Source: Candidatus Multivoradales bacterium
GTDB lineage: Bacteria; Acidobacteriota; Thermoanaerobaculia; Multivoradales; Multivoraceae
Length of the DNA stretch: 64,000 nt
Direction: 5' to 3'
NCBI GenBank assembly: GCA_965223325.1
Contig: CBDCWI010000002.1
Span: 2,656,001-2,720,000 of the forward strand
Positions 19,962 through 43,612 of the stretch are shown here, piece by piece. The translations under genes were made by a program, and so were the position numbers. The notes below the pieces were generated by a model, which had not been told where the DNA came from, ran no database searches, and was given only the letters and a program-made list of their open reading frames with translations. The stretch's first letter is position 1, and each line of letters starts with the position of its first letter.

Positions 19962-20092
19962 GAGTGCGCAACCTCCGCGAGCGCGGAGACGCTCGATACG
20001 GTTTGAGAGAACGGGTCTCGGAACGAACGGCGATCATACGCCGCTGCCTGGGCGCACCGTTTCTCTGGCCCTAGTTCCCCTCGGACGGCCAC

Positions 20093-22372
20093 CTAGGGGT
20101 TACTACGACTCCAGGCGGTGGTGCCTTGGCTCTCGAAATCGTCTCCGAAGAGGGACTTCCAGGTACGTAAGAGCGTCGCCAAGGCCGCCGGGCTCGACGT
20201 GGCCGCGGTGTTACCTTCCTGGTTCTCGCGATTCACACCGTGGCAGCCGTCACAGGCTCGAATCTCGCCCGGCTGAGCGGTGATCCAGAAACGTTCTCGC
20301 ACCACCGGCGTACCGGCGCTATCGGTGCTCTGCCAGGCGAGCGCCCGCTGCGCAGGCACGAATGCAGCCACCGACCCATCGGGATGAATCTCGACGCTCG
20401 CCGGTGGCGCGTCGTTCGCCAGGGGTGTCAGAGCGAGCGCTTGTTCGTCGTGCAGGTACTGCGCAAGGACGCGACGGCCGGGCCGCGGGTCGTCGGTACC
20501 GCCATAGCCGCGCAGCAGATCGCCCTGGAAGAACTGGAAGTACTCGAGGTCGTAGAGCTTGCCGTCGGGCGTTCCACGGGTCGTCTTACCGCCCGGCACG
20601 CGCAGGTTGTAGGGCTGCTGAAGGTCGGCGTCGTCGCGTGAGGTCACGTCGCGCACCACCAACAAGGCCAACTGCCGATCTCGCATCCAGGATTGCAGCT
20701 CGTCGGGTGCTATGCCCTCGGCATCGAAGACCGCCTGCTCGGGGCCAGCCAGGGCTTCGCTCGGCGCGGGCGGCACGGGGCGCGCGCGAACTTCGACGGG
20801 CTCGAGCTCCCACAGCGGTCCGGAGTAGGTCACCCGGACATCGGGATCCCACCAGCTGACGGTTTCAGAGATGCCCGAGGTGAGCTCGACACCCGGGGCC
20901 ATCGAGCCGGTGCTCCCGGTCACGGTGCGCAATCTGAAGTCGTAGCGAGGGTCAGGCGCAGCGCGCGTTCCCTCATTCTCGGCATAGCGCTTCTCATGGG
21001 TGTGCGCGGCAATCAGCGTGCCGTCTGAAAGCGGCAGGGGGTCACGAAAGAAGCCCCGGTGACCGGCCGGCGGCGTAGCGCCGTCGGCGATCGGAACACG
21101 ACCCACCCGGTCGGTCAGGTAGCTGACGGTCACGTCGTCGGGATTCCGCTCAGGCGGCGCGTCGAGGGCTACAAGTTGGCCAGCGGCGTGGGTCCCGAAC
21201 TCTGGTGCATCGGTACCAACGTAGCGACCCAGATCTGTAGGGTCTTCGCGCATCTGCAAGATGTTCTCGAGCTCGTTCGGGTTCACACGGCCAGTGACCT
21301 CGGCGATGAACTCGACCAGGTTCGGGTCATCGTTGAATGCCCGATCGAAGTAGCTCGCCAGCTCATGACGTCCGACGTGATTGAGCATCTCCTCGCTGGT
21401 GCCGTCCTGGTTGATCTGCCACGGCAGGAACTGGTTCAGCGTATGGCCGGCCAGGTTGGTCCCCGCGAGCAGGTCGGTACGCTCGCTGCGCGGCTCGGGG
21501 AAGATCTCATCTTGTCGTGGCAGGCGCTCGGCCCGGGCCGACTCACTGGCGTAGTTGAAACTCCCGTGATCGCGGTGGCCGAGGGCGTCGGCATCGGCCT
21601 GTTGGTCTTGCTGTAGGTGGTCCCAACGCGTGAAGATCACGCGCCCGAACGAATCGACGATGGGCGTGAACGAACCCGAGGGCGCGTGGTTCAGCATCAC
21701 CAGCTCGCCGCTCTCGGGGTCGAGGCTCCAGAGACCGGTCGGCGTCGGAGTGGACTCGTACTCGTCGAGCTGCGGATAGTGATGCGCTGTTCCACCGCGC
21801 GGCCGGTCGGAAACGAAAACGATGCGACCGTCGCTCAAGTACGCGGGGCTCACGTTGTTGTAGCTGCTGGGTTGGCGCGGCACTCTCCCAATCGACACGG
21901 AGTCTCCTTCGCCGAGGCCGGTGACCTCATAGAGCTGCCAGAAGGTCTGCTCTTGGACGTACTGCTGGGACGGCGCACCGCGCAGCATGCTGAAGACCGC
22001 CTTCTCGCCGTTCCAGTGCACCGACGGTCCGCGCACCGCGATCGCATGGCTCGCCTGCCCGCCGGCCTGGCCGAAGCCGGCTTCTTCGGTGAGATTTCGC
22101 AACGTCCCGTTGGGATACAAGATCCAGAGATCGCCGCCCCGTGCGACCGCCATCATGTGCGTCCTGTGGTTCGCAAACACCGAGCCAATGGTCGCGAAGT
22201 CTGCAGGCACCGGAACCTGGGTGACGAACAGAACCGGATTGGGAACCACGCCCGCGGTGCCACGCACCGGGGAGCCAGCCGGGACCGAGCGCTCCTGGGC
22301 TTCGAGGCTGGGCGTGGACGAGGCAACTAGTCCGAACAACAGAACCGCGGCGACGCGGTCGCGGATAGGCAT
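20093..22372 (-). CDS. Secreted HzsA-related beta-propeller protein with CxxCH and a C-terminal FxDxFE tail
   Basis: Signal peptide; PAYLSDGRIVFVSDR, GRVIFTRWDH, DGSVAAFVPA...WQ, PGEIRACDGCH; ends LFGDDFESQGTTAWSRSNP. Confidence 0.75.
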   Translation of the reverse strand: MPIRDRVAAVLLFGLVASSTPSLEAQERSVPAGSPVRGTAGVVPNPVLFVTQVPVPADFATIGSVFANHRTHMMAVARGGDLWILYPNGTLRNLTEEAGFGQAGGQASHAIAVRGPSVHWNGEKAVFSMLRGAPSQQYVQEQTFWQLYEVTGLGEGDSVSIGRVPRQPSSYNNVSPAYLSDGRIVFVSDRPRGGTAHHYPQLDEYESTPTPTGLWSLDPESGELVMLNHAPSGSFTPIVDSFGRVIFTRWDHLQQDQQADADALGHRDHGSFNYASESARAERLPRQDEIFPEPRSERTDLLAGTNLAGHTLNQFLPWQINQDGTSEEMLNHVGRHELASYFDRAFNDDPNLVEFIAEVTGRVNPNELENILQMREDPTDLGRYVGTDAPEFGTHAAGQLVALDAPPERNPDDVTVSYLTDRVGRVPIADGATPPAGHRGFFRDPLPLSDGTLIAAHTHEKRYAENEGTRAAPDPRYDFRLRTVTGSTGSMAPGVELTSGISETVSWWDPDVRVTYSGPLWELEPVEVRARPVPPAPSEALAGPEQAVFDAEGIAPDELQSWMRDRQLALLVVRDVTSRDDADLQQPYNLRVPGGKTTRGTPDGKLYDLEYFQFFQGDLLRGYGGTDDPRPGRRVLAQYLHDEQALALTPLANDAPPASVEIHPDGSVAAFVPAQRALAWQSTDSAGTPVVRERFWITAQPGEIRACDGCHGVNRENQEGNTAATSSPAALATLLRTWKSLFGDDFESQGTTAWSRSNP

Positions 22373-22584
22373 AGCAGGGCTCCCTGGTTTCGAAAACAAG
22401 GAAAGGGAATCGGGATAGGAGCGCCTGCGCCGTGCCGTGGTTTGAAGGCGAGCGGACCGGACCGACCGGCGCAGGCTAATATCCCTTAGTGCGCACTATT
22501 CTATATTGGGTCCGCACAGCGCCGGGTGATAGCTTGATGAGCCTCCAAGTCCTCATTCGAGCCATGTCAACGAGTCGACGATCC

Positions 22585-23802
22585 ATGCACCATTCCTTGC
22601 TTGCCCCGCGCCTGCTCGTGCTCCTCGGTTTGAGCCTCGTTCTCGCCCCTCAAGCCCCGGCCCAGGAGAGCGAGGGCGCCTCCAGTCAGGGCCGGGTCGA
22701 GGGTGCGCACGAGAAACTCCCGCCCGGCTCGTTCGAGGACGACCTCGGGATCACGATTCCCATACCGGCCAGCCACTCCGGGCGGCGCTATCCAGCCACC
22801 GGCGACTTCCCTACCGGTCCCGCAATCGGCCAGCGGCTGCCCGAGTTCGAGCTGCCCAACCAGAGTGGCGAGGTCATTGACTTTCATGCCGACCGCGGCG
22901 ACTCGAAGGCGATCGTCGTCTTCTTTCGCTCGGCGGTGTGGTGACCGTACTGCCGTACGCAGCTGGTCGAGCTGCAAGAAAACCTCGAGTTTCTCAACGC
23001 CCAGGGCATCAAGCTCTACGGCGTCAGCTATGACGCCCAGGGCCACCTCAGAACGTTCGCCGATGGGCACGGAATCACCTACGACCTGCTGTCGGACTAC
23101 GACTCGGAAGTCATCAAGCGCTTCGGGATTCTAAACACCACCATTGAACCCGACGCGCCGGAAATCCATCGCGGAACCGAACGCGGGTTCTACGGTATTC
23201 CCTTTCCTGGCGTCTACGTGGTTGGCAACGATGGCCGGGTCACCGAAAAGTTCTTTCACCGCCACTACGCCACGCGCACTTCGGCAGGCACGATTCGAGA
23301 CAGCGTGATCGGTCGAATTGTTTCCCAACACGAAGTCCCGGCCACCGACCTGGGTGACGACCACGTCGAGGTCTCCCTCTTCCTCGCCGACCCGTCGCTC
23401 CGATTCGAGTACGCGAGCACGCTCTACGTCCGCTTCGAAGTCGCCGATGGGTTCCACATCTATGCCAACCCCCTGCCAGAGGGTTTTATCGCATCGACGG
23501 CAGAGATCGTCCCGACCGAAGGGGTGCGCGCTGGAACTGCAACCTATCCTCCGACTCGCATCCGGGAATTTCCCAAGCTCGGCGTGACACTCAACGTCTA
23601 CGAAGGCACCACCGACGTTGCGATCCCGATCACCCTCAATTCCGAGATCCTCAACTGGCCCATCCAGGACAAGCCAAGCGAGATCAAGATTCCGGTCGAG
23701 GTGGTCTATCAGGTGTGCAGCGAAACGGTTTGCTACGTGCCAATGGAGAAAACCGTCGAGCTCGAGGTCCCGATCGAGCCGCTGGTGATGCCCGGCCAGT
23801 GA
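22585..23802 (+). CDS. Exported selenoprotein: AhpC/TSA peroxiredoxin-like UxxC domain fused to a DsbD-N-like domain (UGA at 22942-22944 read as Sec)
   Basis: Track ORFs 22489-22944 and 23218-23802 share one frame, interrupted only by TGA in FFRSAVW-U-PYCRTQLVELQ. C-terminal FHIY...YQVCSETVCY. Start at 22564 or 22585. Confidence 0.85.
22959..22975 (+). promoter_or_regulatory. Candidate bacterial SECIS hairpin
   Basis: GCAGCT-GGTCG-AGCTGC stem-loop starting 15 nt after the UGA, with G at the start of the loop. Confidence 0.65.
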
Positions 23803-23852
23803 CCGCGCGCGGCCTTGTGGCGACGACGTTCAAGCTCAGCCCATCGCTCGAG

Positions 23853-23903
23853 TTGATGCGTTGATGCGTTGATGGCATCGTCAGATGATGCTATGATGCC
23901 TGG
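23853..23903 (+). promoter_or_regulatory. Sigma70-type promoter with GATG repeats (putative operator) for vapBC
   Basis: TTGATG (23869-23874), 17 bp spacer, TATGAT (23892-23897) with an extended-10 TG. The ATG follows 6 nt later. TTGATG occurs three times at 8-bp spacing. Confidence 0.65.
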
Positions 23904-24173
23904 ATGCGAACGACGGTCACTCTCGATGCCGACGTCGAGGAACTGCTGCGCGAAGCAATGCGGCGAAACCGCAAGAGCTTCAAACAGACCCTCAACGACG
24001 CTCTCCGCAGCGGCCTCGGCGCCGGGCGACCAAGCGACGAGCCCGAGTTCGTCATCAACGCACGACCCCTCGGTCTGCGCTCAGGAATCGACCCGGCGGC
24101 GGTTCGCGACCTGGATGACGAGATCGAAGTCGACGAATTCCTGCGCAAGACCCAAGAGCTCGAAGGCCGGTAG
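23904..24173 (+). CDS. vapB: VapB-type RHH antitoxin
   Basis: MRTTVTLDADV...SFKQTLNDALRSGL; acidic C-terminus; overlaps the toxin start. Confidence 0.85.
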   Translation: MRTTVTLDADVEELLREAMRRNRKSFKQTLNDALRSGLGAGRPSDEPEFVINARPLGLRSGIDPAAVRDLDDEIEVDEFLRKTQELEGR

Positions 24174-24604
24174 TGATCGTGCCCGACGCCAATCTGCTGC
24201 TCTATGCCTACGACACGTCGAGCCCCTTTCATGAACGTGCCGCAAGGTGGTGGGAAGGAGCGCTGAACAGCGGTGAGAGCGTCGGTTTGTGCTCCGTTGT
24301 GCTGTTTGCCTTTGTGCGAGTCGGGACGAATCGGCGAGCCTTCGAGAACCCGATGACAATTGGCGAAGCATCGGGCCACGTTCGCAGCTGGCTGGCGCGC
24401 TCGGTGACCGAACTCCTCATCACACAAGAGGCCGACGTCACGAAAGCCCTGCAGTGGCTCGAAGCCCTGGGCTCAGGCAGTACCCTGACCACCGATGCCC
24501 AGATCGGAGCCATCGCCAGTCGCTACCGAGCGACAGTGCACACCGCCGACACCGACTTCGCCCGATTCCCCGGGGTCAGATTCAAGAACCCGCTACTCGA
24601 CTGA
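24173..24604 (+). CDS. vapC: VapC PIN-domain ribonuclease toxin
   Basis: IVPDANLLLYA, TDAQIGAIA, HTADTDFARFPG, NPL. Confidence 0.9.
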   Translation: MIVPDANLLLYAYDTSSPFHERAARWWEGALNSGESVGLCSVVLFAFVRVGTNRRAFENPMTIGEASGHVRSWLARSVTELLITQEADVTKALQWLEALGSGSTLTTDAQIGAIASRYRATVHTADTDFARFPGVRFKNPLLD

Positions 24605-24857
24605 GCCTCTCAGCGGAGGTCGACCCCTCGCGCGTAGTAGCCATCGTCGAGCCTGCGGGTGCGAACCTTCCCATCCACGGCCTTTAGAGTGAGGACAACC
24701 TCGCTGCGATGTTGGGGTATAACGCGGTGCTTCCACAGTCCTGCCCTTCGGCAGCACCGGCCCCCAGGGCAGCAACCGCCATCAGACAGGAAACGAGACG
24801 CCGATTCATGCTCACCACTCTAAGCGACGGATCGGGCGACGGGCGGTTCGGAGCTCG

Positions 24858-27149
24858 CTAGAACAGGAATGCGTAGCCCAGCTTCAGAAACAGCGTGCGA
24901 TCCGTCTGGGTCAAGCTGAATGCATCACCGCCCAACCGGTTGTCTGAATAGCCCGCAAACAGAACAGTCTGTGCGTTGAGCTTGTAGCTGAACAGGAGCT
25001 GCGTGAAGACGTCTTCGCTCTCGCGCTCGACTGGGCGGATGAAGAACGCCGGGTCGTTCTTGATCGCTGTTCTTTGCACGATGGCGCGCACGAAGCTGCG
25101 GGTGCTGAAGTGGTAGAAGAGGCGCAGTTCGGTGAGGTCGGCGGTGAGGTAGGTGTCGCCCTCGAGTTCGAAGCTGCGCCGCGAGTGGCCGAGTTCCGCC
25201 TGAGTGCGCTTGCCAATCTTGAGACCAATCTCGGGGCTGAAGTTGAACAGGTCGGCTTGGCGATCGTTCCTGAAGTCGACCTCGTCTTCATACGCAACGT
25301 AGAGCGCGAGGCTCAACGAACCGGTGGGCTGCAGCTGGCCGAAGAGCTCGCCGCCCCGCAGGTCTTCATAGAGAGTCGAGCCGTTGCGCTTGTCGATGTT
25401 CCAGGTTTGCACGAAGGCACTCGACTGCTTGGGGCCCTGGAAGAAGCCCGACAGCCCAACCTTGCGATCGGTCAACAATCCGTCGCGGTCCTCGCTCTGA
25501 AAGGCGTTGACTCCAACCTGCGAACTCACCAGAAACGACTCCGGCGAATGCCACCAGGTGCGCGAGAGGTGGGCACCGGCAGTTTCGATGTCGACCCGCG
25601 GAACGAAACCCGAGTCGGCGCGAAAGTCGCGATCCAGGACGCGGTAGTTGGCACTCCAGTTCCACTCTCGCGTGTTGTGAAAGTAGTTGACTGCGAAGGC
25701 GTTGCCGCCAATCTGATTCTCCGACAGCCCCTGACGGTCGCGTAAGGGGTCGGGATAGTCCGTTTCCGAATGCAACGCCTGAACATTCAGCCGGTCGCTG
25801 CGGGCGATCTGAAACGAAGCATCAACACCGCTGACCCGGTTCCAGTAGTTGTCAGCTTCGCGCCCGGCATAGAGCACACCCACACTATGGTTGCGGCCTA
25901 CGTCGCGGCGGTAGCGCAACACAGAACCGAGGACCTCGGAGTCGAGCACTCCATCGGCCGACGAGACGAAGGCCGACCCCTGGTTTCCCGGCAGCAGGAC
26001 GTTGTTGACCGTGTCCTGGGTCACGAAGACTCCGTAGGCATTCTTGCCTTCCTTTCCCGTCAGCTTGAGGCCAACGTCCGGGTCGACGACCGTTCGCGTG
26101 AACACCGCGTTGATGGGAGTCTGAAAGACGTCGGTGCCCTCGAGAAAGAACGGGCGCTGCTCTGGAAAGAAGAGCGCAAAGCGCTGGTTGACGTCGAGCT
26201 GACCAGCATCGGCCTCGACCTGTGAAAAGTCCGGGTTGACCGCGAAGCTGAGGCGCGAGCTCGGGCTGAGGTTGAAGCGCCCCGAAACCCCTGGATCGAC
26301 GTCGTCATCGTTGTCGTCGAAGTCGCCGTCGGGGAGCTCGGTCTTGCGCTCGGTATTGCGAGCCGTCAGGGTCGGGATGACCTCGAAGGAGCTTCCCGGC
26401 TTCATGCCCGCGAAGCCTTCAAAGTAGCTGTAGTTGCAGGTGAAGCACACGTCGTCAAAATCGATCTTGTGGCTCGCCATGCGATGGCGCTGCCCACGCG
26501 GCCAGGAACGACCGAGGTTGATTCGCCAGGTCTGGGCGCCCTGCCCAGCGGGGAACGGAAGCTGGTTCAGCGGGAAGGCGATCTCGACGATGTAGCCTTG
26601 AGGGGTGATGCGTCCCTTGGCGTCCCAGATGATGTCCCACGACCAGTCTTCGGACCCACCACCAACGAAACTGTTGAGTGAATCCGCCTGCACGCCGAGA
26701 GGGTTGACGCGGAACTGAAAGGCGCGGCGCTGGTCATTGAAGGAATCGATCATCACCAGGATGTAGTCGTCCTGAACCATGGTGTCGATGGCATCCCGAT
26801 CCATCAGGTGCGCACGGATCAGCGACGGCTCTGGGTCGAGCGCACGAGCGCCGACATAGAGCCGCCGCTCGTCGTAGGTGACGAGAAACTCGGTTCTAAC
26901 AGGCGGCTCAACGTTCTCGCCAGGCGTCCACTCCCACAGCTTGTCGACAACCAGCGCGTCATCCCAAGCGGCTTCATCGAGCACGCCGTCAACGACGATG
27001 GGGGAGGTTGCCGCCTGCACCTGGTAATGCAGCGGCTCGAACTCCACCTCATCCTGGGCCAGCGCCGGAAGGCGCAGCGCGGCCTGAAAGACAGAGAAAA
27101 GGAAAGCGATTGCAGCGAGGCGCAGTCGCCCCTGGAAGATGGCCGGCAT
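24858..27149 (-). CDS. CBM9-like plus DUF5916 outer-membrane protein
   Basis: Signal peptide, DGVLDEAAW, FRVNPLGVQ, NPDFSQVEAD, FFPEQRPFFLEG, terminal aromatic beta-strand KLGYAFLF. Confidence 0.85.
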   Translation of the reverse strand: MPAIFQGRLRLAAIAFLFSVFQAALRLPALAQDEVEFEPLHYQVQAATSPIVVDGVLDEAAWDDALVVDKLWEWTPGENVEPPVRTEFLVTYDERRLYVGARALDPEPSLIRAHLMDRDAIDTMVQDDYILVMIDSFNDQRRAFQFRVNPLGVQADSLNSFVGGGSEDWSWDIIWDAKGRITPQGYIVEIAFPLNQLPFPAGQGAQTWRINLGRSWPRGQRHRMASHKIDFDDVCFTCNYSYFEGFAGMKPGSSFEVIPTLTARNTERKTELPDGDFDDNDDDVDPGVSGRFNLSPSSRLSFAVNPDFSQVEADAGQLDVNQRFALFFPEQRPFFLEGTDVFQTPINAVFTRTVVDPDVGLKLTGKEGKNAYGVFVTQDTVNNVLLPGNQGSAFVSSADGVLDSEVLGSVLRYRRDVGRNHSVGVLYAGREADNYWNRVSGVDASFQIARSDRLNVQALHSETDYPDPLRDRQGLSENQIGGNAFAVNYFHNTREWNWSANYRVLDRDFRADSGFVPRVDIETAGAHLSRTWWHSPESFLVSSQVGVNAFQSEDRDGLLTDRKVGLSGFFQGPKQSSAFVQTWNIDKRNGSTLYEDLRGGELFGQLQPTGSLSLALYVAYEDEVDFRNDRQADLFNFSPEIGLKIGKRTQAELGHSRRSFELEGDTYLTADLTELRLFYHFSTRSFVRAIVQRTAIKNDPAFFIRPVERESEDVFTQLLFSYKLNAQTVLFAGYSDNRLGGDAFSLTQTDRTLFLKLGYAFLF

Positions 27150-27430
27150 TGGTCGAAGTCCTAGAGAACAGGGCTGTGCCCCTAGACCCGGCCCCTCGGC
27201 TGGGAGGACACGACGCGAATGTGGATTGGGATAGCGGGTGCGGCTGGAGGGCCGCCAAGGAGGTATACGGAGGTGAGTGGCGTTCGTCCCGAAAAAAGTC
27301 TACTCTTTGAAGCGAGCAAGATCCTGGCAACCGTGACTCCAAGATGCAAGCCTCCAGGACTGAGAACCGCCCGGCACAGCGCAAGTTCCCGCACCGGCCA
27401 ATGGACCAGCGCCTTACCCTCCTGCGACCC

Positions 27431-28066
27431 TCACGTCGGGTCCTGTTCCTCGATTCGTCCGTACTCGAGCGACTTGTACGCCCGCAGAACGACGTCGACA
27501 GTCGGCCGCGGAAGGTCTCGGGGAATGCGAATGAGCGGCCCAGAACGTTCGAACGGTGGCGGCGGAACGGTCTCGAACACGCTCGCCCACAATCGGACCG
27601 GGCAGCTGTAGTAGATCCAGTCAGCCGCACCATAGCGATCGTCCCACTCGATCAACTTCTCGTTGGTCTCGATCAACAAGCGGCGCGCATTGGCAAGCCG
27701 AAGCCGCGAGCCATAGCGGGACTTGCCCTTGGTCTTTAGATGCAGCGGTTGTGCCCGCCCTTTTCCGCGCACCACATAGCGCCGCAGGCTTTTTCTGATG
27801 AGCGGTTGCGCGCCCTCGAACCGCCCGAGCGAAACGGCACCTGCTTGCATCAGAACCACCGAGTGGCGAGTCGGCGCTTCAGGTAGAGAGCCGAGGTACT
27901 GAGCGAGCGTGGTGCAGTCGGGTTCGATCGGGAAGACGAGGGGCGGCAGAACACGCAGCCCTTCTGTCTCGAACCAGCGCCGTTTGGGCTCGAGGATCAG
28001 CTCATGTTCAACCTCGAGACGCTCGAGAGTGGCGGCAGTTTCTTGCCAATGAAAAGTTTGCGGCAT
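27431..28066 (-). CDS. VLRF1 (Vms1-like) family release factor/peptidyl-tRNA processing protein
   Basis: VVLMQAG...G...KSLRRYVVRGKGRAQ...KTKGKSRYGSRLR, matching the bacterial VLRF1 pattern. Confidence 0.7.
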   Translation of the reverse strand: MPQTFHWQETAATLERLEVEHELILEPKRRWFETEGLRVLPPLVFPIEPDCTTLAQYLGSLPEAPTRHSVVLMQAGAVSLGRFEGAQPLIRKSLRRYVVRGKGRAQPLHLKTKGKSRYGSRLRLANARRLLIETNEKLIEWDDRYGAADWIYYSCPVRLWASVFETVPPPPFERSGPLIRIPRDLPRPTVDVVLRAYKSLEYGRIEEQDPT

Positions 28067-28129
28067 TGGCTGAATCTTTCATGGTTCCCGCTCGACCCTC
28101 CGCAGGATCGCCGCCACAACTGAGTCTCC

Positions 28130-29689
28130 TCAGATCAAAGCCTCGATAAGCGAAGGCCCTGGCTCGCTTAAAGCAGCTGCCAGAGCGCTGTTGAACTCCT
28201 CAGCGGTTTCGACCCGCCAGGCTGGAACCCCCATCCCCTTCGCCAGGTCGGTCCAGCCGAGCGCCGGGTTGGTGAGGTCGAGCATGCTGATGGCCTTTGG
28301 CCCTGGTTCGTGGGCACCGACCCGAGCAAACTCGATCTGCAGAATGGCGTACTTCTGGTTGGCGAACACGATGGTCGTGATGTCGAGTTGCTCGCGGGCC
28401 TGGGTCCAGAGGGCCTGGACGGTGTACATGCCCGAGCCATCGGCCTGGAGTGAAACGACCCTACGATCAGGACATGCAACCGCCGCGCCGACGGCAGCCG
28501 GCAGGCCGTAGCCGATCGAGCCGCCGGTCAGAACCAACCAGTCGTGCGGGGGTGCACCGCGGGTGGCATAGGCCGAAGGGGCTCCTGACATGCCGCCTTC
28601 ATCGACGACGATCGCGTTCTCAGGCAGCAAGTGCCCGACCGCAGCACCAATCGAACGGGCGTTGAGCTCGCCTGTCGGGAGTGGCGGACGCTCGGGGGCG
28701 ATCAGGCGCGCTTCGGTGCCAGCGGCGCCGACCGCATCGGCCAGAGCTTCGAGCGCTCCGTCGATGTCACCGTCGCGCTCGACGAGCACGTGCAGGGAAC
28801 AGTCCTCCGGCGTCAACCAATTTGGCTTGTCGGGGTAGGCAAAAAAGGTGATCGGTGGCTGGGTGCTGCACAGAATCAGATGTTTCGTACCCGCAAGCAC
28901 TTCGGTCGCTTGCTCGCCGAAGTACGGAAGCCTCGCGACCTCGGCCCTGCCCGCGCCGCGTTCGATGCGCGGCACGAAGGTATCCATGATCACGCGTGCA
29001 CCGGTTGCCTGGGCAACACGGTCGGCGATCGCGGTGCGCCGCGCACTGATCACACCGTTCATCAAAATCACGCTCGGTTCGCCGCTTCTGAGCACCCGCG
29101 CCACCTCTTCGACTTGACTGGCATCGACCGGCTTCGGAGCAACCTTCGGGAGCGGCACCGCGCTGGCAGAGGTGCGATTCCAGGCCGTATCGGCTGGCAG
29201 GATCAGAGTCGCCACCTGGCCGGGCGGCGACATTGCCGCTTGCACGGCGGCCGCACCGTCGGCTGCGACGTCATCGGCCGACGGCGAGACCTTGACCCAC
29301 CCCGAAACCGGTCGCGCGATGCCCTCGACATCGGAGGTGAGCGGCGCATCGTACTGACGGTGGTAGGTGGCATGGTCACCGACCACGTTGACGAGCGGGG
29401 TTCTCGCCTTCTTGGCATTGTGCAGATTGGCGAGACCGTTGCCGAGACCCGGACCGAGGTGAAGCAATGTCGCGGCCGGGGTGGCGTTCATCCGCCCGTA
29501 GCCATCGGCTGCACCCGTCACCACGCCTTCGAAAAGGCCGAGTACGCAGCGCATCTCCGGATTGGTATCGAGCGCCGCCACGAAGTGCATCTCGGATGTG
29601 CCGGGGTTGCTGAAGCAAACGTTGACCCCGGCGTCGACGAAGGTCTGGACGAGGCTCTCCGCCCCGCTACGGTCTCTTGTTTCGGTCAT
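28130..29689 (-). CDS. Acetolactate synthase large subunit-like ThDP enzyme
   Basis: NPGTSEMH, LFEGVVTGAADGYGR, LHLGPG, ThDP motif ADGSGMYT...N. Confidence 0.9.
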   Translation of the reverse strand: MTETRDRSGAESLVQTFVDAGVNVCFSNPGTSEMHFVAALDTNPEMRCVLGLFEGVVTGAADGYGRMNATPAATLLHLGPGLGNGLANLHNAKKARTPLVNVVGDHATYHRQYDAPLTSDVEGIARPVSGWVKVSPSADDVAADGAAAVQAAMSPPGQVATLILPADTAWNRTSASAVPLPKVAPKPVDASQVEEVARVLRSGEPSVILMNGVISARRTAIADRVAQATGARVIMDTFVPRIERGAGRAEVARLPYFGEQATEVLAGTKHLILCSTQPPITFFAYPDKPNWLTPEDCSLHVLVERDGDIDGALEALADAVGAAGTEARLIAPERPPLPTGELNARSIGAAVGHLLPENAIVVDEGGMSGAPSAYATRGAPPHDWLVLTGGSIGYGLPAAVGAAVACPDRRVVSLQADGSGMYTVQALWTQAREQLDITTIVFANQKYAILQIEFARVGAHEPGPKAISMLDLTNPALGWTDLAKGMGVPAWRVETAEEFNSALAAALSEPGPSLIEALI

Positions 29690-29830
29690 GCTCTACCACC
29701 CTCAACCAGAAGGAGCGCGAACCGGCGCCCTGGCGCGTCATCCGCGGCTGTTATTCGACGCGACCGTACAGGCCATCACCAGCCCCGGGCAAGCGAGCAT
29801 CGACCCGGAGCTGTGCTGGTTGCCTCGGGT

Positions 29831-32800
29831 TTAGACCGTCAGGCTCCAGGCCGCGGTCGAGCCAATCTCGAAACCGTCCGAGAACAGCTCGTCATCTGGC
29901 GCGTCGAGGCCATCGACGCCGTCACTCTCGCCTGCCTGGTCTGCTTCGGCAGAGGGCACATGCTGGGCAGGGTCGCCAAGGAGGTTATAGGACGGCACGC
30001 TCGCCAGGCGGCCGCCGCGGGCGACAAAACGGTCGAACGACGCGAGGATCAGATCGCCCAGCCGCTGGTTGGGGGTTTCCATCGCCAAAAGCGACGCGAG
30101 CTGAAGAGCGAGCTCGACCGAAGCGGCATCGTCGGCCAACCCTGAAGAGCTGAGCGCCGCAACCGCCCCGCCACCAGCCTGAAGCAACAGCTCTTCGGCA
30201 AGCGCCGGCGACCCTGGCAGGCCGTAGCGGGCTGCGGTACAGGTCATTGCGCCGAGAATGAACGGCTGATCGGCGAAGGGATCGAGATCGGGGTTGTCCG
30301 TCGGGCTGGGAAGGTCGTCGGTCGTCAGGAGTTGTTCGGCCGCGAGCGCTGTCAGCGCTCCGTGGCCGAAGTAGGAGACCCAACCGGCGCCGCGATCGAG
30401 GGCTTCGAACAGGCTTCGACGCGTGGTGACGGTGCCACCGGGCGAAAGCACCACATCCTCGATATCGAACGCATAGGCGAGAGGCGCCAGCGCACTGCGA
30501 CCATCGGGACCGAAGTTGGCTCCTGCTTCGGCGTCATCTGCCAGCATGAGATGACGCTCGGTCCACTCTTCGCCCGCCGCCAGATCGGCTTCGTAGGCAT
30601 CCAGCTTTGCGAGATAGCCGTCGAGTTCGACCGCTGTCACCACCGGGAGTCGCCCGATTGCCGTGTCGGCCAGTCCGTCCGTTTCCGACCTCGACCAGTC
30701 GACGTAAAGGGCATCCGAGGCGAAAAGACCGACCTCGGTTACGGTGAGAAGCGCCGGTACGAGGTTGCCGCCGGCCGCCAGGTGGTCGTGATAGTCGAAG
30801 GTCCCGGCACCCACCAGAACAACGTACGACGGGCCGAGCTCTGACAGGAAGCCCGACAGAGCGGAGGGGTCGAAATCACCGGCCGACCGCTGGTCGAGAA
30901 CGTCCTCGAGCAGAACGACTTCGGCAGCCAGCCCTTCGTCACTACGTCGAGCCGCCAGCTCCTCTGCTCCTGGCAGAAGGTCACGCGCTCCGACCACCGC
31001 GACCCAATCGGCCGAGGTTGGCAGAATCCCATCGAAGCCGGCGGTAACCATGAGCGTTTGCGGCGCGCCCGAGTGCACGAGGTAACGACGTTCTGCGGTC
31101 GTTTCGAGATCGAGACTCCACACTCCAGCGTCGCTCTGTGGAGTCACCGCAATGGCTACAGGTGCGTAGGGCTCGCTGATATCGAGGGCCACGACGCGGT
31201 CAGAAAGCAAGCTGCCCACCGTCGTGGTCGCGGTTTCTTCGGCTTCGAAGATCAGCATGCCACCCATAGCCTCGGCGTAGCGCGGATAGGTGAGCGTGAT
31301 GTGATCGGCGTAGAGAACACCGGCAGTTCGGGAAATCGAAACCAGATTCACGCCTTCTTGCAGCTCTCCCGGTTCCAACTCGTGCTCGAAGACGAGATCT
31401 CCCGAACCGTCTCGGGTCGCCAAACCAAGTGGGTCCGGCGAGCCGTTCAGATAGACCTCGGCGCTATGAGTGGTCGCACCGGCACCAAAAAGCGCAACGC
31501 GCAAATGAACCGCGCCGCTGGCGATCGCCGAGGCCTCGACCGAGACATCGAGCGTCGGCGACCCGGCGTGCAGGGCCTGCCAGAAGAAGATGTCACGAAC
31601 CGGGTCGCGAAGGGCCGCAGTGGCAGCAAAGTTGTTCTCCTCGACGGTCGTGACCTGGGTGTAGGAGACACCGCCACTCCCGCGCTGCGCGAAGGCTGCC
31701 CGCCGCGCCGAGATCTGCGTCCCCGGACGGGGGTACAAGAAGTAGGTCGCGTATTGCCCGTAGATGCTGTCGCGCCCTTCGCCGTAGAAGCGAATGCTCG
31801 ACCCTTCCGGGTCTTCGATCCAGGGGACCGATACTCCCGCGCGCACCAGATCGAACCGGCCCGCGGCAATCTGCGTCGAAGCGACCTCGGGCGTCATGCC
31901 GAAGACTTCGCCCAACTGGGAGACCGTGATCTCGAAGAGACCATCTTCTGGAACCAGGGCGCGCAGGTAGTCAGCCGTCAGCGCCTCGGGCTGCAGCGCC
32001 GGGGTGGTGATGCGCTGTAGCGGATCAGGAAGGATCGGAGTCGCGCGGTAGCCGTCGAGTACGAATTCACGCGCGTCGGTGCGAAAAGCGCGCGCCGCCC
32101 GCAGAGCACCCTCCGGCGGTCGGTACTCGATGACCGACCGAACGAACGGCCCCCACCAGCGTGCGAGGCCGTCCTGGGTGCGCTCGACGAGCGCGTACTC
32201 GAGGGTTTCACCCGACGGAGCCCGGTTGTCGCGCAGGCTGTAGGTCGCGCCGCTGCTCGCCTCGGGAACCGCCGGTTGCGGTTCTTCTGTCACCGCCACC
32301 CATTCTCCAGCGTCGCGCCGCCAGAGTTCCCAGCTCTGGGTTCCGACCTCGGAGGCGGTGCGCCAACGAACCTCGATGCCATCCTCGTTGTAAACGTCGA
32401 AGGAGGTCACCGGAGCGTGGGTCAAGGTCGCCGTCTGAATGGTGAGCTGACAGAGTTCGCCAGTCGACAGAGTCGCGGGGCCGAGTTGTGCCGCGCCGCA
32501 TAAAGCGCCGGTACACGTGCCGTCGACCCATGTGGCACGGGTGCCGTTGCTGGTTCCGGGCGCCGGGGTGACGTCAACCGGCGTCGCCGCCGTGGGCGTC
32601 ACCGTCACGCGATAGGACAGGAGGGCGGCGGAGCCGGCCGCGACGGTTCCCGGGTTCCACTGCACATTCCCGGCGCCACCAGCAGCGGGTTGTGCCACCA
32701 CCGTGCCTTGTGACACCGACTGAATCGCCGAGTACAAGACTTGACCACCCGGCACGTTGGCGGTTACAAGGTTGGTGGCGCTGAAGGAGATTGGCAGACT

Positions 32801-33904
32801 GGTCGGGTTGACCACCCGTACCGTCACGACGAAGTCGCTCGCGACTCCAATCACCGGCGGATTGGGACCAGCGCCGGTCGCCGCCAGGCGTTGCTCGAGG
32901 AAGGGGCGCACCGGCACGCCACCACCGTCAATCGGGAGATAGAGGCGGCTGGAGTTGGCATAGGGCTGCCCGGTCGGCGCCGCGGGGCCGGCCAGGTCTT
33001 CGCCGAGGTAGAACACCGACCAGTTGTCTTTGACGCCGTTCGGGGAATCGAGCACCGCCGTCCAACTACCGTAGTCGACGGCCACTGAAGCGGACGTGAA
33101 CCCGGTCATCGCAACGTCCCCCCAGGCCTGATTCCCCGACGGCGGATTGGTCGCCGAGAAGGCTCCCGTACGACTGCTGATGACGTTGTTCCCCAGGTTG
33201 TCCTGGTCGTAGGTTCGATCGCGGACGGTGCAGCCATTGGTGACGTGCGGGTAGACCGTGAGATTGGGCTGCGGCGAACCGACGGTGTTGCCCCACATCA
33301 CGAAGCTATGGGCATAGACCGGTAGCTCGGTTCCACCGGCCGTGGGGTCGGAATCGTGGGCGCGCAACCCGAAGCCGTTCAGGTACCTCTTGGTGCCACC
33401 GGTCGAATCGGTGCGAATCTCCCAATGACCCGGAGCCGGCGCGTTCTGACCGAAGAGCTGGATCCACTGGTTGTTGCAGGGTCCGGTCGCACACAGCTGG
33501 ACGGCAGTAACCGGTCCAGCCGCACCCGCTCCGTTGAGAAGCACCGGCGCTCCGAAGGGGTCGAGCACCGTGATCTGAAACAGGCTGGCGGTCCCGGTAT
33601 CCCAGGCGGCGCCGATGTCAGGATCGAAGAGATCGATCTCGAGACGCGCCAGTCCTGGTGGGACCTCAACAAAGAAACTGTAGTGGGTACCCAGCGCCTT
33701 GGTCACGTAGTCGCCGCTCGACAGCGCCACCTTGGCGCTCAGCTGCCGGAACAGTTCTCCGGGTGCGGCGCCGCCCGAGGTGCCGGCCGCAAACGCTCGT
33801 GTACCCGATAGAAGCACCGTCGCGCTCAGCAAGATCAAACCAAGCTGAGCGTAGCGGGGCCGAATGGACGGCCGAGTCGTTCGGGCTTCGCGAAAGAAGA
33901 GCAT
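29831..33904 (-). CDS. Secreted C25 (gingipain/PorU-like) cysteine peptidase with a C-terminal FxDxFE tail
   Basis: YVVLVGAG, SDALY, AIGRLPV, catalytic His in VSYFGHG, catalytic Cys in GAMTC, YNLLGDPA; ends LFSDGFEIGSTAAWSLTV. Start uncertain (33904 or 33922). Confidence 0.85.
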   Translation of the reverse strand: MLFFREARTTRPSIRPRYAQLGLILLSATVLLSGTRAFAAGTSGGAAPGELFRQLSAKVALSSGDYVTKALGTHYSFFVEVPPGLARLEIDLFDPDIGAAWDTGTASLFQITVLDPFGAPVLLNGAGAAGPVTAVQLCATGPCNNQWIQLFGQNAPAPGHWEIRTDSTGGTKRYLNGFGLRAHDSDPTAGGTELPVYAHSFVMWGNTVGSPQPNLTVYPHVTNGCTVRDRTYDQDNLGNNVISSRTGAFSATNPPSGNQAWGDVAMTGFTSASVAVDYGSWTAVLDSPNGVKDNWSVFYLGEDLAGPAAPTGQPYANSSRLYLPIDGGGVPVRPFLEQRLAATGAGPNPPVIGVASDFVVTVRVVNPTSLPISFSATNLVTANVPGGQVLYSAIQSVSQGTVVAQPAAGGAGNVQWNPGTVAAGSAALLSYRVTVTPTAATPVDVTPAPGTSNGTRATWVDGTCTGALCGAAQLGPATLSTGELCQLTIQTATLTHAPVTSFDVYNEDGIEVRWRTASEVGTQSWELWRRDAGEWVAVTEEPQPAVPEASSGATYSLRDNRAPSGETLEYALVERTQDGLARWWGPFVRSVIEYRPPEGALRAARAFRTDAREFVLDGYRATPILPDPLQRITTPALQPEALTADYLRALVPEDGLFEITVSQLGEVFGMTPEVASTQIAAGRFDLVRAGVSVPWIEDPEGSSIRFYGEGRDSIYGQYATYFLYPRPGTQISARRAAFAQRGSGGVSYTQVTTVEENNFAATAALRDPVRDIFFWQALHAGSPTLDVSVEASAIASGAVHLRVALFGAGATTHSAEVYLNGSPDPLGLATRDGSGDLVFEHELEPGELQEGVNLVSISRTAGVLYADHITLTYPRYAEAMGGMLIFEAEETATTTVGSLLSDRVVALDISEPYAPVAIAVTPQSDAGVWSLDLETTAERRYLVHSGAPQTLMVTAGFDGILPTSADWVAVVGARDLLPGAEELAARRSDEGLAAEVVLLEDVLDQRSAGDFDPSALSGFLSELGPSYVVLVGAGTFDYHDHLAAGGNLVPALLTVTEVGLFASDALYVDWSRSETDGLADTAIGRLPVVTAVELDGYLAKLDAYEADLAAGEEWTERHLMLADDAEAGANFGPDGRSALAPLAYAFDIEDVVLSPGGTVTTRRSLFEALDRGAGWVSYFGHGALTALAAEQLLTTDDLPSPTDNPDLDPFADQPFILGAMTCTAARYGLPGSPALAEELLLQAGGGAVAALSSSGLADDAASVELALQLASLLAMETPNQRLGDLILASFDRFVARGGRLASVPSYNLLGDPAQHVPSAEADQAGESDGVDGLDAPDDELFSDGFEIGSTAAWSLTV

Positions 33905-34023
33905 TTGAAGTTTTACATGCAATCAACAGGCCACGCGAGCAGATAAATCCTATCATTTACAGTTTTAAAATTCTACAAATCGATCGGCAGGGTCACCGCC
34001 AGGACGCCAGAGGGCCGGTCGTC

Positions 34024-36360
34024 CTACCCCACGACCCTGGACCACGAGCTCGTCCCGGCTGATTCGAAGTCGTCCACAAACAGCGGCTTGGGGAGAATGG
34101 TCTGCGAGAACTGCGCTTCGTTGTCCAGCGTGCTGGACTCGGCGGTCGAGGCAGAGGACGATGCCCCGAGGTCGAAGGACTGTCCCGGCTCTCCGGTGAC
34201 CATGACCGTGAGCACGACCGTCTGGACGCTGCCCGCCGGCAGCGAAGCGAAGTCGCAGATGTTGCCACCACCAGGCGTTGCGGGGCTACCGCCGGCGCAG
34301 TCGACGCTTGTGATGACGCCCGCCGACAGCGAGTCGATCGCCAACTGCACGGCCTGCGCATCGGAAGGCCCCTCGTTGGTGAGCTCGAGGGTGAGCTCGA
34401 ACTGCTCGTCCATCTCCTCGGGACCCTCAGGTGCCGAGGCCGTCAGGGCCAGGTTGGCCAGCGGATTGACCGAGAAGGCCAGATCACGTGCATTGTCTAA
34501 AGAAACCGGATCGAACCCTGCGACCGAAGCACTCGTCGGCATGAGAACCTCGCCCACCACATCGGATGCGATTCCGCACATGAAGTCGTAGCGAAACTCG
34601 CTGGATCCGCCGAGCACCAGATCAGCCTCCGAGACACCTCCCGAAACCGGCCCAGGCGAGCACGCGGCCACGCCTCGCCCACCATCTCCGCCAAAGCTGG
34701 TTGGCACACACGTCCACTCGCACCCGTCTAGACCAGCCGGCAGCCCAACCGAGACGTCGACGGTCTGCGGAAAGTAGCCATAGTTGGTGACATGAATCGA
34801 GAACGTCGTCGCTGACCCCGGCGTCGTCCCCGCCACTGCACCGAGATCGACCGCTACGTTCTCAGTCACCTCATAGGCGCCGAGATCGCAGTCTCCGGCG
34901 ATCGAACGATCGAAGCCGCGGCCGTCGCTCTGATCGCAGAAGGCCAGACCCCGCGCCTCGGCCGGCGCGGCATTGATCGCCGGACTGCCTGCCAGCAGTC
35001 GATGAGTCCTCGTGCTGCCGCCGTTGTCGGCCAGCGGCCCGAGATAACTCACGGCGGCGGAAACGGCCTGGTCTGACGAGGCGGTTGGACACTCGGACTC
35101 GGTGTCCTCGAAGAGGTTGTACCCCAGAGTCGAGACGCCGGCCGCCGCCGAGCAATTGGAACCGCCGGGTGCGGAGTTCGACAACACGATCGAACGCCCG
35201 ATCTCGAGCGCCCCGGCAAGGCCACCAGCCTCCGACGACGCTTGGTTCTCCACCACCGTGACGAAGTCCAGCGTGACGGCCACCTCAGGAGGCGCCACGC
35301 CGCGCACATCGGGTGCCAGAAACTCGGCGAACACTCCTCCGCCAACACCAGCGGCGGTCTCGACGCCGACAGCCTGGTTGCCCGACACCGTCACGTTGCT
35401 GAGGGTAAGTCCCGAGCCCAGGGCGAAGACCGCACCTCCGCGGGCATAAGTCTCCACCACTTGCGAGTGAATCTCGGCCACGTTGCCCTCGAACGATGAC
35501 TCTTCGACCGTACCGGCCCCACCGAACCACAGCCCACCGCCCTCGACTTGACCTTCATCGCTGAGGTCGTCGATCATCTCGGCGTGGTTGTTGCTGAAAG
35601 TCGTTCCACGCACCGCAAGCGACCCGGCGCTGTAGATGCCTCCTCCTTGAAATCGTGGTCCACCGAGCTCACGAAGTTCTTCGAAGTCCTGAGGACGCAC
35701 CAGGTTGTCTTCGATGAGGCTGTCGATGATGACCAGCGTCGGTACCGGGTCAAGTGGCCCGGGGGCCGGAGCGTTGAAAATCCCGCCACCGCGCTCAGCC
35801 TCGTTGTCGGCAACTCGAACGTTGCGTAGCACGAGCCGACCACGGTTGTAGATTCCTGCGCCCTCGTTGGCGCGCCCGCCCTCGATCGCAAGACCATGGA
35901 GTGCTGGACTGCCGCCCAACTGGTCGGTGTAAGTGCACTCGAGGACGCGGTGATCACCGACCGCGCTGATCACCGTCTGGTCGCTCCCAACACCCTCCAG
36001 AACGAGCCGGCTCTCAATGAAGAGCGAGCCGAACTCGACCTCGTAGGTGCCGGCTGCGAGCTGGATCAAGTCCTCCGCGGGCCCATCGGGACCGGGACCT
36101 GGCGTACCCGAGGGACATGTATCGACGGCACTTTTGCTGCGCGCCGCGAGCAGGGCCTCGCGCAACGAACACTCGCCGTCACTGCCTTGCGCCGGAGTCC
36201 AGTCTGAGAACGTCGTCACCACAATCGCACCAGCACCGCGGGTGACCTCGCCGTTTAGAGAATCGTCTGCGGCTTCTGCGGTCTGCGCAACGAGCAGGGC
36301 TGCCAACAGAGGCCCGATGCGTAGAGCGGAAGCGAGGCGGCCGGAGAGAGAAGGGTTCAA
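34024..36360 (-). CDS. CSLREA/beta-helix/choice-of-anchor Q/DUF11 surface protein with a C-terminal FxDxFE tail
   Basis: ECSLREA, GGGI repeats, LGPLADNGG...GSPAINA...CDLGAYE, TNEGPSDA; ends LFVDDFESAGTSSWSRVVG; SD gaggagg. Confidence 0.85.
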   Translation of the reverse strand: MNPSLSGRLASALRIGPLLAALLVAQTAEAADDSLNGEVTRGAGAIVVTTFSDWTPAQGSDGECSLREALLAARSKSAVDTCPSGTPGPGPDGPAEDLIQLAAGTYEVEFGSLFIESRLVLEGVGSDQTVISAVGDHRVLECTYTDQLGGSPALHGLAIEGGRANEGAGIYNRGRLVLRNVRVADNEAERGGGIFNAPAPGPLDPVPTLVIIDSLIEDNLVRPQDFEELRELGGPRFQGGGIYSAGSLAVRGTTFSNNHAEMIDDLSDEGQVEGGGLWFGGAGTVEESSFEGNVAEIHSQVVETYARGGAVFALGSGLTLSNVTVSGNQAVGVETAAGVGGGVFAEFLAPDVRGVAPPEVAVTLDFVTVVENQASSEAGGLAGALEIGRSIVLSNSAPGGSNCSAAAGVSTLGYNLFEDTESECPTASSDQAVSAAVSYLGPLADNGGSTRTHRLLAGSPAINAAPAEARGLAFCDQSDGRGFDRSIAGDCDLGAYEVTENVAVDLGAVAGTTPGSATTFSIHVTNYGYFPQTVDVSVGLPAGLDGCEWTCVPTSFGGDGGRGVAACSPGPVSGGVSEADLVLGGSSEFRYDFMCGIASDVVGEVLMPTSASVAGFDPVSLDNARDLAFSVNPLANLALTASAPEGPEEMDEQFELTLELTNEGPSDAQAVQLAIDSLSAGVITSVDCAGGSPATPGGGNICDFASLPAGSVQTVVLTVMVTGEPGQSFDLGASSSASTAESSTLDNEAQFSQTILPKPLFVDDFESAGTSSWSRVVG

Positions 36361-36375
36361 AGTGCTGCCTCCTCG

Positions 36376-42708: not shown

Positions 42709-42709
42709 C

Positions 42710-43612
42710 TCAGCAACCCTCCCTGACCGAGCCATCGAGAGCGGCATCGCGCCCTCGACATCCCTTGGGTCTAACCCACGGGCCAGAGCCGGCGCGTAGA
42801 CGCTCGGCGAGTCGCTCGGCGAGTTCCGCTCGGGCCGGGGCGTTGCGGCCATCCCCGCGCTGCTCGAGCGATTGCAAGGCCCCTCGGTAGGCAGCCTCCG
42901 CTTCGCGGTTGCGTCCGAGACGCAGGAGGATCTCGCCCCGCTTCACCATCCACTTCTCGGCTCGGGGCGCCATCCCAAGGACCCGGTCGACGTGTTCTAG
43001 CGCCGCTTCGTCATCGCCTCGGGCCTGCTGGTAATCAAGCGCCCGCACCTCGAGAACCAACAGAGTTCCCAGAGTGTCGGTCGCCGCATCGAGCACCGCG
43101 ATCGCATCCTCGACCCGACTGGGCTCCGCTTCGATGTAAGCCTCGGCCAGCTCGAGGTAGTACGTCGGCCCGGCCATCGGATCAGCCGTGATGACGTCGG
43201 TGTAGTCAACGGCAGCTTCGAGCGGTCGGTCGAGGGCCAAGAGCGCCCGGGCGCGCAGGATCCTGGCGAACAAATGATGGGGTTCAACCTCGAGCGATCG
43301 ATTGAGCTCGGAAAGGGCTGCCTCCACATCGCCAGATTCGAGCAACACCCTGCCAAGCAGAAAGTGAGCCTCCCAGGCGCCAGGTTCTAGCGCGAGGAAG
43401 CGCTCGAGATCGAGTCGCGCCTCTTCGAAATGGTCCACCTGGCGGAGTAGTTCGGCGCGCTGGAGGTAGAGGTCAGCCGCATCGGGGGCCAGTGCGATCT
43501 TGAAGGCCAGCGACGAAATCGCCTCGCTCGGTGCCTCGTGAGCGAAGGCACCCGGTGCAGCCGGCAAGAGAAGCAGAGCCCCGAGAACAAGGGAGCGTGT
43601 TTGAAAGGACAT
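42710..43612 (-). CDS. Secreted TPR protein
   Basis: Signal peptide ending AFA-H; multiple TPR helices; abuts the phosphatase start. Confidence 0.8.
   Translation of the reverse strand: MSFQTRSLVLGALLLLPAAPGAFAHEAPSEAISSLAFKIALAPDAADLYLQRAELLRQVDHFEEARLDLERFLALEPGAWEAHFLLGRVLLESGDVEAALSELNRSLEVEPHHLFARILRARALLALDRPLEAAVDYTDVITADPMAGPTYYLELAEAYIEAEPSRVEDAIAVLDAATDTLGTLLVLEVRALDYQQARGDDEAALEHVDRVLGMAPRAEKWMVKRGEILLRLGRNREAEAAYRGALQSLEQRGDGRNAPARAELAERLAERLRAGSGPWVRPKGCRGRDAALDGSVREGC

Follow-up and report, generated by a model that had tools for sequence, protein, structure and literature searches.

A shared C-terminal tail on predicted secreted enzymes of Acidobacteriota, a candidate sorting tag that is apparently undescribed

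We analyzed a 64,000-nucleotide stretch of DNA from Candidatus Multivoradales bacterium (contig CBDCWI010000002.1, positions 2,656,001 to 2,720,000), here called the window, in which three predicted exported proteins end in the same short C-terminal tail. The window has a G+C content of ~64–65%, and the three tail genes lie together within 16 kb on its minus strand. The first (20093..22399) encodes a 768-aa protein with a beta-propeller and a CxxCH heme motif, and its C-terminus reads LFGDDFESQGTTAWSRSNP. This tail occupies 20096..20152 and is followed by the stop codon at 20093-20095; it runs 18 residues from its phenylalanine to the end, and the last residue is proline. Pfam matched the protein to HZS_alpha (7e-11) and to PD40, and its Atlas neighbors carry the name "HzsA-related protein family" (score 0.98). 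A tail-bearing protein from another locus, in an Acidobacteriota metagenome-assembled genome (MAG), is 59% identical to it, and the tail is kept in both.

The second gene (29831..33922, minus strand) encodes a 1363-aa PorU-like peptidase of family C25, clan CD; its database record (P0125) starts 6 codons later and gives 1357 aa. By Pfam coordinates, the catalytic domain spans residues 977-1319 (29966..30994), with the catalytic His1187 at 30362-30364 and Cys1228 at 30239-30241, these two nucleotide positions being computed from the coordinates of the open reading frame (ORF). An acidic, low-complexity linker of ~25 residues joins this domain to the tail at 29834..29887, which reads LFSDGFEIGSTAAWSLTV and runs 17 residues from phenylalanine to the end. 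The third gene (34024..36360, minus strand) shares its strand with the C25 gene, lies ~100 bp upstream of that gene, and encodes a 778-aa CSLREA / choice-of-anchor-Q / DUF11 protein. Its tail, LFVDDFESAGTSSWSRVVG, occupies 34027..34083 and again has 18 residues from phenylalanine to the end. The choice-of-anchor-Q model (NF041518) matched residues 440-498 with 66.3 bits against a cut-off of 25; the CSLREA N-terminal model (TIGR04214) gave 23.1 bits against a cut-off of 25, and the translation contains the CSLREA motif. DUF11 was found at residues 637-751. The closest relative of this protein, P0006, is 42% identical and carries the same tail.

By eye, the N-termini of all three proteins resemble Sec signal peptides, with basic residues followed by a hydrophobic stretch, and a home-made signal-peptide heuristic was positive for two of the three. 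The preliminary description of this DNA had reported three unrelated signal-peptide proteins with a common ending, and all three tails were indeed found at the stops of long minus-strand ORFs. Its calls of a C25 peptidase and of a choice-of-anchor-Q domain also held, the former with 154.3 bits against a Pfam (PF01364) cut-off of 23 and with both catalytic residues present. As it had noted, neither a transmembrane helix nor a basic cluster is visible in the three tails. Directly upstream, a 2158-aa protein with a signal-peptide-like start is encoded at 36376-42852 (minus strand), and its gene ends 16 bp before the tail-bearing CSLREA gene. Its purple-acid-phosphatase head is accompanied by ten PKD domains of the K319L-like type and by an unnamed repeat, starting "...SDDAEE", in several copies. 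This protein has no tail, and thus the tail is not general to exported proteins at this locus.

The three tails stand out clearly within the window. A degenerate DNA pattern encoding F-x-D-[GDE]-F-E-x3-T-x2-W matched three times, against 0.00 matches expected, and no match appeared in any of 100 dinucleotide-preserving shuffles of the window. A looser six-frame regular expression added only one match, located 50 residues from the stop of a 70-codon frame. When all six-frame segments were scored with a tail hidden Markov model (HMM), the three tails, which are themselves among the 123 training sequences of the model, scored 28-34 bits and the runner-up segment 6.8 bits.

We then scanned reference genomes with the tail DNA pattern. 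The scan returned at least 125 stretches, which make up 123 loci; flanking DNA of up to 10 kb was included for 80 of these. Among the matches listed, which comprise at least 142 distinct ones, an in-frame stop lies 13-24 codons from the phenylalanine in 126, including 86 in which it lies at exactly 18 codons. The stop falls at 29 or 32 codons in 2 further matches and at 40 or more in 9, and the frame runs off the locus in 5. Since six tail residues are fixed by the search pattern, conservation was read at the free positions of the 123 distinct tails. The resulting consensus is [L/I/V]-F-x-D-G-F-E-S-G-D-T-S-A-W-S-x-T-V-P-COOH, typically with 18 residues from the phenylalanine to the free C-terminus. 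Counted from that phenylalanine, position -1 is L, I, V, or P in 98% of tails, +3 is Gly in 88%, +6 Ser in 69%, +7 Gly in 93%, +8 Asp or Asn in 74%, +11 Ala in 63%, +13 Ser in 69%, and +17 Pro in 76%. The length is exactly 18 residues in 84 of the 123 tails, and the last residue is proline in 90. Searching the flanks with the tail HMM revealed 17 additional tails, which do not fit the search pattern and were therefore not selected by it. Every one of these 17 ends no more than 13 residues from a stop, and for 13 of them the distance is at most 3 residues. The tail is thus locked to the C-terminus, and the lock extends to tails found independently of the pattern.

Tail genes cluster, with three or four in several 20-kb loci, as well as the three in 16 kb of the window. 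Five proteins (P0282, P0285, P0288, P0309, and P0420) carry two full C-terminal tails in tandem, 21-24 residues apart; one of these proteins is 3969 aa long. The 123 distinct tail ORFs end in TGA (57), TAG (55), or TAA (11), with 441, 214, and 48, respectively, for other long ORFs. Read-through or recoding past the tail was considered and rejected: the stop mix is only mildly shifted (TAG in 55/123 vs 214/703), and there is no conserved downstream frame.

A profile of the 123 tails, run against 1.84 billion cluster representatives, gave 7,778 matches at E ≤ 0.001, a number that overstates the true tails because elsewhere the motif is the start of an ordinary domain. Among the best 150 of these matches, 102 had a C-terminal copy only, 10 had C-terminal and internal copies, 33 had internal copies only, and 5 fell outside the regular expression. 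Multi-copy proteins top this ranking, as the scores of their copies are summed. No Pfam or NCBIfam model matched the tail, either within the proteins or alone, at E ≤ 10, and the profile found no match among Protein Data Bank (PDB) sequences at the same threshold. Within a limited literature collection, searches on DGFE tails, Acidobacteria sorting, and choice-of-anchor domains found no description of this tail, and the term "C-terminal" is absent from the main text of PMC8528874. Collectively, these results make the tail a widespread end-tag of secreted enzymes in an acidobacterial lineage, and apparently an undescribed one.

The proteins that carry the tail are varied. Among 83 carriers of at least 150 aa, Pfam recognized peptidases of families S8 (subtilases), M12B, M28, M14, C1 (papain-type), and C25; GH114, glucose/sorbosone dehydrogenase (GSDH), ThuA, and purple acid phosphatase domains; and FG-GAP/ASPIC, BNR, beta-helix, DUF11, PKD, cadherin-like, and other domains. 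With tails removed, the 123 carriers fell into 69 BLAST clusters, a figure inflated by the ~45 loci that yielded only 100-residue fragments (300-bp flanks). The biggest cluster has 39 members, and in several of these an InhA-type MAM jelly roll immediately precedes the tail; elsewhere among the carriers, a subtilase, fn3-like, or DUF11 domain comes right before it. An enrichment of signal peptides among tail proteins, which the preliminary description had proposed as a check, was borne out by our heuristic, a home-made one applied to crude ORF calls: signal-peptide-like starts were found in 50 of 65 tail ORFs and in 132 of 442 other long, non-overlapping ORFs of the same loci (odds ratio 7.8, p 5e-13). 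The sole carrier that is not a soluble exported protein is a membrane protein of 969 aa (L053:2837-5746, minus strand) that contains Wzy_C (O-antigen ligase) and PMT_2 domains; it has a tail-like end with E-E-A-T-T in place of E-S-G-D-T.

To place the tail taxonomically, we used the record titles of the loci. Among the matches listed, 104 of the 123 loci bear an Acidobacteriota-lineage label (Acidobacteriota, Acidobacteria, Holophagae, Thermoanaerobaculia, or an order or family of Thermoanaerobaculia), mostly Thermoanaerobaculia or Holophagae. The remaining 19 loci include 7 labeled "uncultured bacterium", 5 "Deltaproteobacteria bacterium" MAGs, 5 Actinomycetota or Verrucomicrobiota records in which the match is internal or runs off the locus, and one Crocinitomicaceae (Bacteroidota) and one Polyangiaceae (Myxococcota) MAG. 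The C-terminal-type tails in these last two (L091 and L114) could be real spread, gene transfer, or binning error. The earlier mention of similar tails in other diderms is only partly borne out: outside the Acidobacteriota-labeled records, the matches in named phyla were mostly internal copies. Ten full-length tail clusters were also sampled from the profile search; three have organism names, all "Acidobacteriota bacterium". The window itself fits this lineage, in that its DNA polymerase I is 59-70% identical to the relatives listed, the named ones being Thermoanaerobaculia, Holophagales, or Acidobacteriota MAGs; this points to an acidobacterial source, probably within the class Thermoanaerobaculia. 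As the order in which the genome collection was scanned is not known, the skew toward Acidobacteriota among the matches listed is suggestive rather than proven, and may partly reflect that order.

The internal copies of the motif point to its likely origin. In the multi-copy proteins examined, they recur every 190-430 residues and fall at profile position 1 of PF14099 (Polysacc_lyase) or at positions 2-4 of CBM_4_9. We built an HMM from eight full jelly-roll units (215 positions) and ran it against the locus ORFs. All 108 matches lay within positions 1-27 of the model, and 99 of them ended within 12 residues of the end of the ORF. The whole jelly-roll module, roughly 130-215 residues, is absent at the tails, and Pfam places no PF14099 or CBM_4_9 domain there. 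At the sequence level, the tail therefore matches the opening stretch of a concanavalin-A-like sandwich, used alone, and would correspond to the first two strands of the jelly roll. AlphaFold was applied to an InhA-type MAM domain with its tail, using a 6-sequence alignment. In the resulting model (predicted template modeling score 0.73), the sandwich ends at residue 149, the linker has a predicted local distance difference test score (pLDDT) below 50, and the tail scores 47-59. This model, together with the acidic linker ahead of the tail in the window C25 protein, suggests that the tail is not packed against the protein that bears it. A 36-residue tail modeled alone (85 sequences) had a pLDDT of 71 and no secondary-structure call, and was uninformative.

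Further context comes from the homologues of the choice-of-anchor-Q protein. NCBIfam uses the name "choice-of-anchor" for domains that are followed by various sorting signals in different proteins, and the position of the tail behind such a domain suggests that it belongs among these signals. We classed the C-termini of the 119 listed homologues, excluding the protein's own record. The full tail is present in 2 (P0006, at 42% identity, and P0058). A hydrophobic helix with a basic cluster was called by regular expression in 7, two of them doubtful by eye, and the C-terminal domain (CTD) of type IX secretion systems (T9SS; PF18962) is present in 3. An xLPLI-type end was found in 14, and none of these endings in 87, many of which are partial. 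In several of the fetched loci, the full tail follows within ~10 residues of the "DIGAFE"-type motif of the anchor-Q domain. Another 6 of the 119 (P0007, P0012, P0051, P0070, P0084, and P0109) stop at or near a bare F-x-DGFE-like motif right after the "CDIGAFE" motif, without the G-D-T-S-A-W-S half; this bare end may be a shorter sister tag. The xLPLI class (for example P0008, P0016, P0018, P0047, and P0096) has a short I-F/Y-L-P-L-I/V-x-R-type end, which is recurrent and for which we saw no model.

We compared the tail with known C-terminal signals. It shares several traits with the T9SS CTD (TIGR04183 / PF18962): both are C-terminal signals without a membrane helix, both occur on hydrolases and adhesins that are exported by Sec and belong to many families, each is found on a PorU-like C25 enzyme encoded in the same genome, and either can end a choice-of-anchor-Q homologue. 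The T9SS CTD, however, is a folded domain of roughly 70-100 residues, whereas the conserved unit of the tail is 17-19 residues, and the CTD models match neither the three window proteins nor the isolated tails, even at E ≤ 10. The window C25 enzyme also scores far under the PorU cut-off. The lineages differ too, as a published survey reports T9SS from 60 of 97 Bacteroidetes genomes and from nowhere outside that clade (PMC4793230), whereas the tail lineage is Acidobacteriota.

Tripartite signals, in which a motif is followed by a hydrophobic helix and then a basic cluster, offer a second comparison (PEP-CTERM/exosortase, LPXTG/sortase, GlyGly-CTERM/rhombosortase, and MYXO-CTERM). Like the tail, these are short, lineage-specific C-terminal tags shared by many unrelated exported proteins of one genome, and some listed choice-of-anchor-Q homologues have such helix-plus-basic ends. 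The tail differs in having neither helix nor basic cluster, both in the three window tails and in the logo of 123 tails, and in matching no NCBIfam model of these signals, so that the earlier statement that it is not LPXTG or PEP-CTERM can be upheld. It would imply no membrane-embedded sorting enzyme. The beta-signal of outer-membrane proteins is likewise a short C-terminal strand read by an envelope machine, but it belongs to barrel proteins and has an aromatic last residue, whereas the tails mostly end in proline and their carriers are soluble enzymes. With jelly-roll modules (PF14099 and PF02018, CBM_4_9), the tail shares the F-x-DGFE-S-G-x-x-x-x-W sequence itself; unlike them, it lacks the rest of the module and ends the protein after a conserved x-T-V-P. 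Judged by its sequence features, the tail is best read as one of the C-terminal sorting tags, with a build unlike that of the helix-type signals and of the T9SS domain.

We therefore favor, with a probability of roughly 55%, the reading that the tail is a lineage-specific tag for envelope sorting or anchoring, acting in trans through a short free hairpin. An export or anchoring tag was also what the preliminary description had proposed, and the lock to the C-terminus, the unrelated carriers with mostly signal-peptide-like starts, the alternative sorting ends in homologues, and the lack of a matching model all support it. The carriers would cross the inner membrane by the Sec route via their N-terminal signal peptides, and the short, unpacked C-terminal hairpin would then be read in trans by a putative envelope receptor, which would either pass the protein across the outer membrane or hold it at the cell surface. 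Recognition might occur by beta-strand docking, possibly with the tag completing an incomplete sandwich; docking is suggested because the tag matches the start of the jelly-roll profile while the rest of the module is missing. In its fullest form, this would be a new surface-display route in Thermoanaerobaculia/Holophagae-type Acidobacteriota, in which the 18-residue hairpin, as the detached first two strands of a jelly roll, completes the receptor's sandwich and so delivers dozens of hydrolases in each genome to the cell surface or into the medium, with no need for T9SS, for a membrane-helix signal, or for any known sortase. We regard that specific version as speculative and rather doubtful.

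Several observations weigh against the sorting-tag reading. All-against-all clustering of 3,368 locus ORFs revealed no receptor, translocon, peptidase, or outer-membrane protein that recurs beside tail genes, and no headless jelly roll, lacking the first strands, was found as a candidate receptor in the 1.24 Mb of fetched locus DNA. The window tails stand at the edge of the family, with DDFE for DGFE in two of the three and a final proline in only one. To these we add the internal-only copies among the best profile matches and the overstated total that they entail, the fragments behind the cluster count, the home-made nature of the signal-peptide test, the thin alignment behind the MAM model, and the possible influence of scan order on the taxonomic skew.

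A rival reading, taken from the preliminary description, is that the C25 peptidase of the window may process the tail. In this scenario, a PorU-like C25 enzyme that is itself tailed would recognize and cleave the tail and attach the cargo to a surface molecule, as PorU does. The label "PorU/gingipain-like", given earlier, proved accurate: a profile of 17 aligned C25 sequences, in all of which His1187 and Cys1228 are invariant, matched PorU in the PDB (6za2_A, E 9.5e-50) ahead of gingipain R (E 4e-34 and 2.3e-33), and the single sequence gave no PDB match. The enzyme is probably active, as judged from these residues. The NCBIfam PorU alignment begins at residue 720, upstream of the Pfam C25 domain, and the next gene upstream of the C25 gene is itself tail-bearing. 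When 5,386 ORFs from the loci and the window were searched with a C25 HMM, a 2852-aa C25 protein that bears the tail was also found, beside two other tail genes (L031). On the other side, the window protein scores only 127 bits against the PorU (NF033707) cut-off of 420, and 77.1 against 450 for PorU2. The tail is present in none of the 29 other C25 homologues found, most of which end just past the catalytic domain, and C25 genes occur in only 3 of the 123 tail loci. No T9SS component was found in the 64-kb window by Pfam and NCBIfam scans, the survey cited above found T9SS only in Bacteroidetes, and many other peptidase families bear the tail as plain cargo. Gingipains, which are cargo, and PorU, which is a sortase, both carry a CTD, so a tail on a C25 enzyme fits cargo as well as sortase. 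We consider the processing role, which had been suggested for this enzyme, unlikely, and the window peptidase reads as a passenger of the tag rather than a demonstrated processing enzyme. Of the other two C25 loci, L060 encodes a tail-less 1034-aa C25 protein within a few kb of a tail gene, next to a 208-aa ORF fragment that the HMM also matched, and in a Sulfomarinibacteraceae MAG (L123:1-639), a C25-family fragment has the motif internally, upstream of part of the pre-catalytic region.

Other explanations do without sorting, or give the tail a different reader. The tail could be a self-contained adhesive or ligand-binding hairpin (for calcium or polysaccharide, for example) that acts after release, or a stabilizing cap against carboxypeptidases. 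Its derivation from carbohydrate-binding-type jelly rolls, the tandem double tails, whose spacing resembles that of repeat-type binding modules, and the frequent final proline would all fit. General structural reasoning makes it unlikely, however, that two sandwich strands bind a ligand alone, a binding repeat would not need the conserved exact distance to the free C-terminus, and some listed anchor-Q homologues end in known sorting-type tails instead; we find this explanation improbable. That the tail is an evolutionary leftover, the functionless stub of a truncated full module, would account for its match to only the first 27 of 215 profile positions and for the full modules with the same start in other proteins. 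Independent truncations would not, however, share one end, with the conserved x-T-V-P and the stop at 18 codons in 86 of the at least 142 matches listed. Nor would a stub be expected on dozens of unrelated families or be kept between relatives at 59% and 42% identity, and neither the stop codons nor the sequence after them show a sign of read-through. The leftover scenario thus appears highly improbable. Finally, PDZ domains read C-termini, and the fixed distance to the free carboxyl end would suit such a reader, for instance a PDZ-type periplasmic protease for quality control or C-terminal processing that determines how long exported proteins last. Among the recurrent neighbors of tail genes, however, there is no protease of this kind, and it is hard to see why so many hydrolases would be marked for degradation, which leaves very little probability for this option.

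If the tail is indeed a sorting tag, it would join a productive class, as C-terminal tags common to many proteins have time and again opened the way to new sorting machines, namely sortases, exosortases, rhombosortase, and T9SS. A tag with neither a helix nor a folded domain would point to a route that those machines do not explain. It would also help to predict more accurately which enzymes these sediment and soil bacteria have outside the cell, with the tag present on thousands of predicted secreted enzymes in an abundant, mostly uncultured acidobacterial lineage. The tail profile provides a ready handle for such searches.

The same clustering of locus ORFs identified two recurrent neighbors that are not themselves carriers, and only these: an extracytoplasmic function (ECF) sigma factor of the PF07638 type, present in 8 loci, and a Ser/Thr kinase that bears TPR repeats, present in 7. 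Their genes often adjoin each other and a tail gene. Pairs of sigma factor and kinase were seen in L009, L025, L031, and L075, the sigma factor only in L014, L041, and L070, and the kinase only in L021 and L038. They look like regulators rather than sorters, and may form a regulatory cassette for tail-bearing secreted proteins. Two further recurrent ORFs, at first "unknown", were dismissed as antisense shadows of the sigma factor and kinase genes. Within the window, a scan of 19800-37000 for promoters and terminators gave nothing that exceeded shuffled sequence. Between the tail genes, at 24858-27149 (minus strand), lies a gene for a 763-aa CBM9_1 and DUF5916 protein, which is not recurrent near tail genes elsewhere.

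Three other minus-strand genes of the window are of separate interest. At 11727-15176, a 1149-aa protein combines a ClpA/ClpB-like double AAA+ region with HEAT repeats and a C-terminal release-factor (PCRF) domain, and a separate 211-aa bVLRF1-type release-factor protein is encoded at 27431-28066. Unfoldase and release-factor parts make an unusual pairing, possibly for ribosome rescue. A 521-aa reverse transcriptase (RVT_1, 9.2e-39), encoded at 52459-54024, could be part of a group II intron or of a retron.

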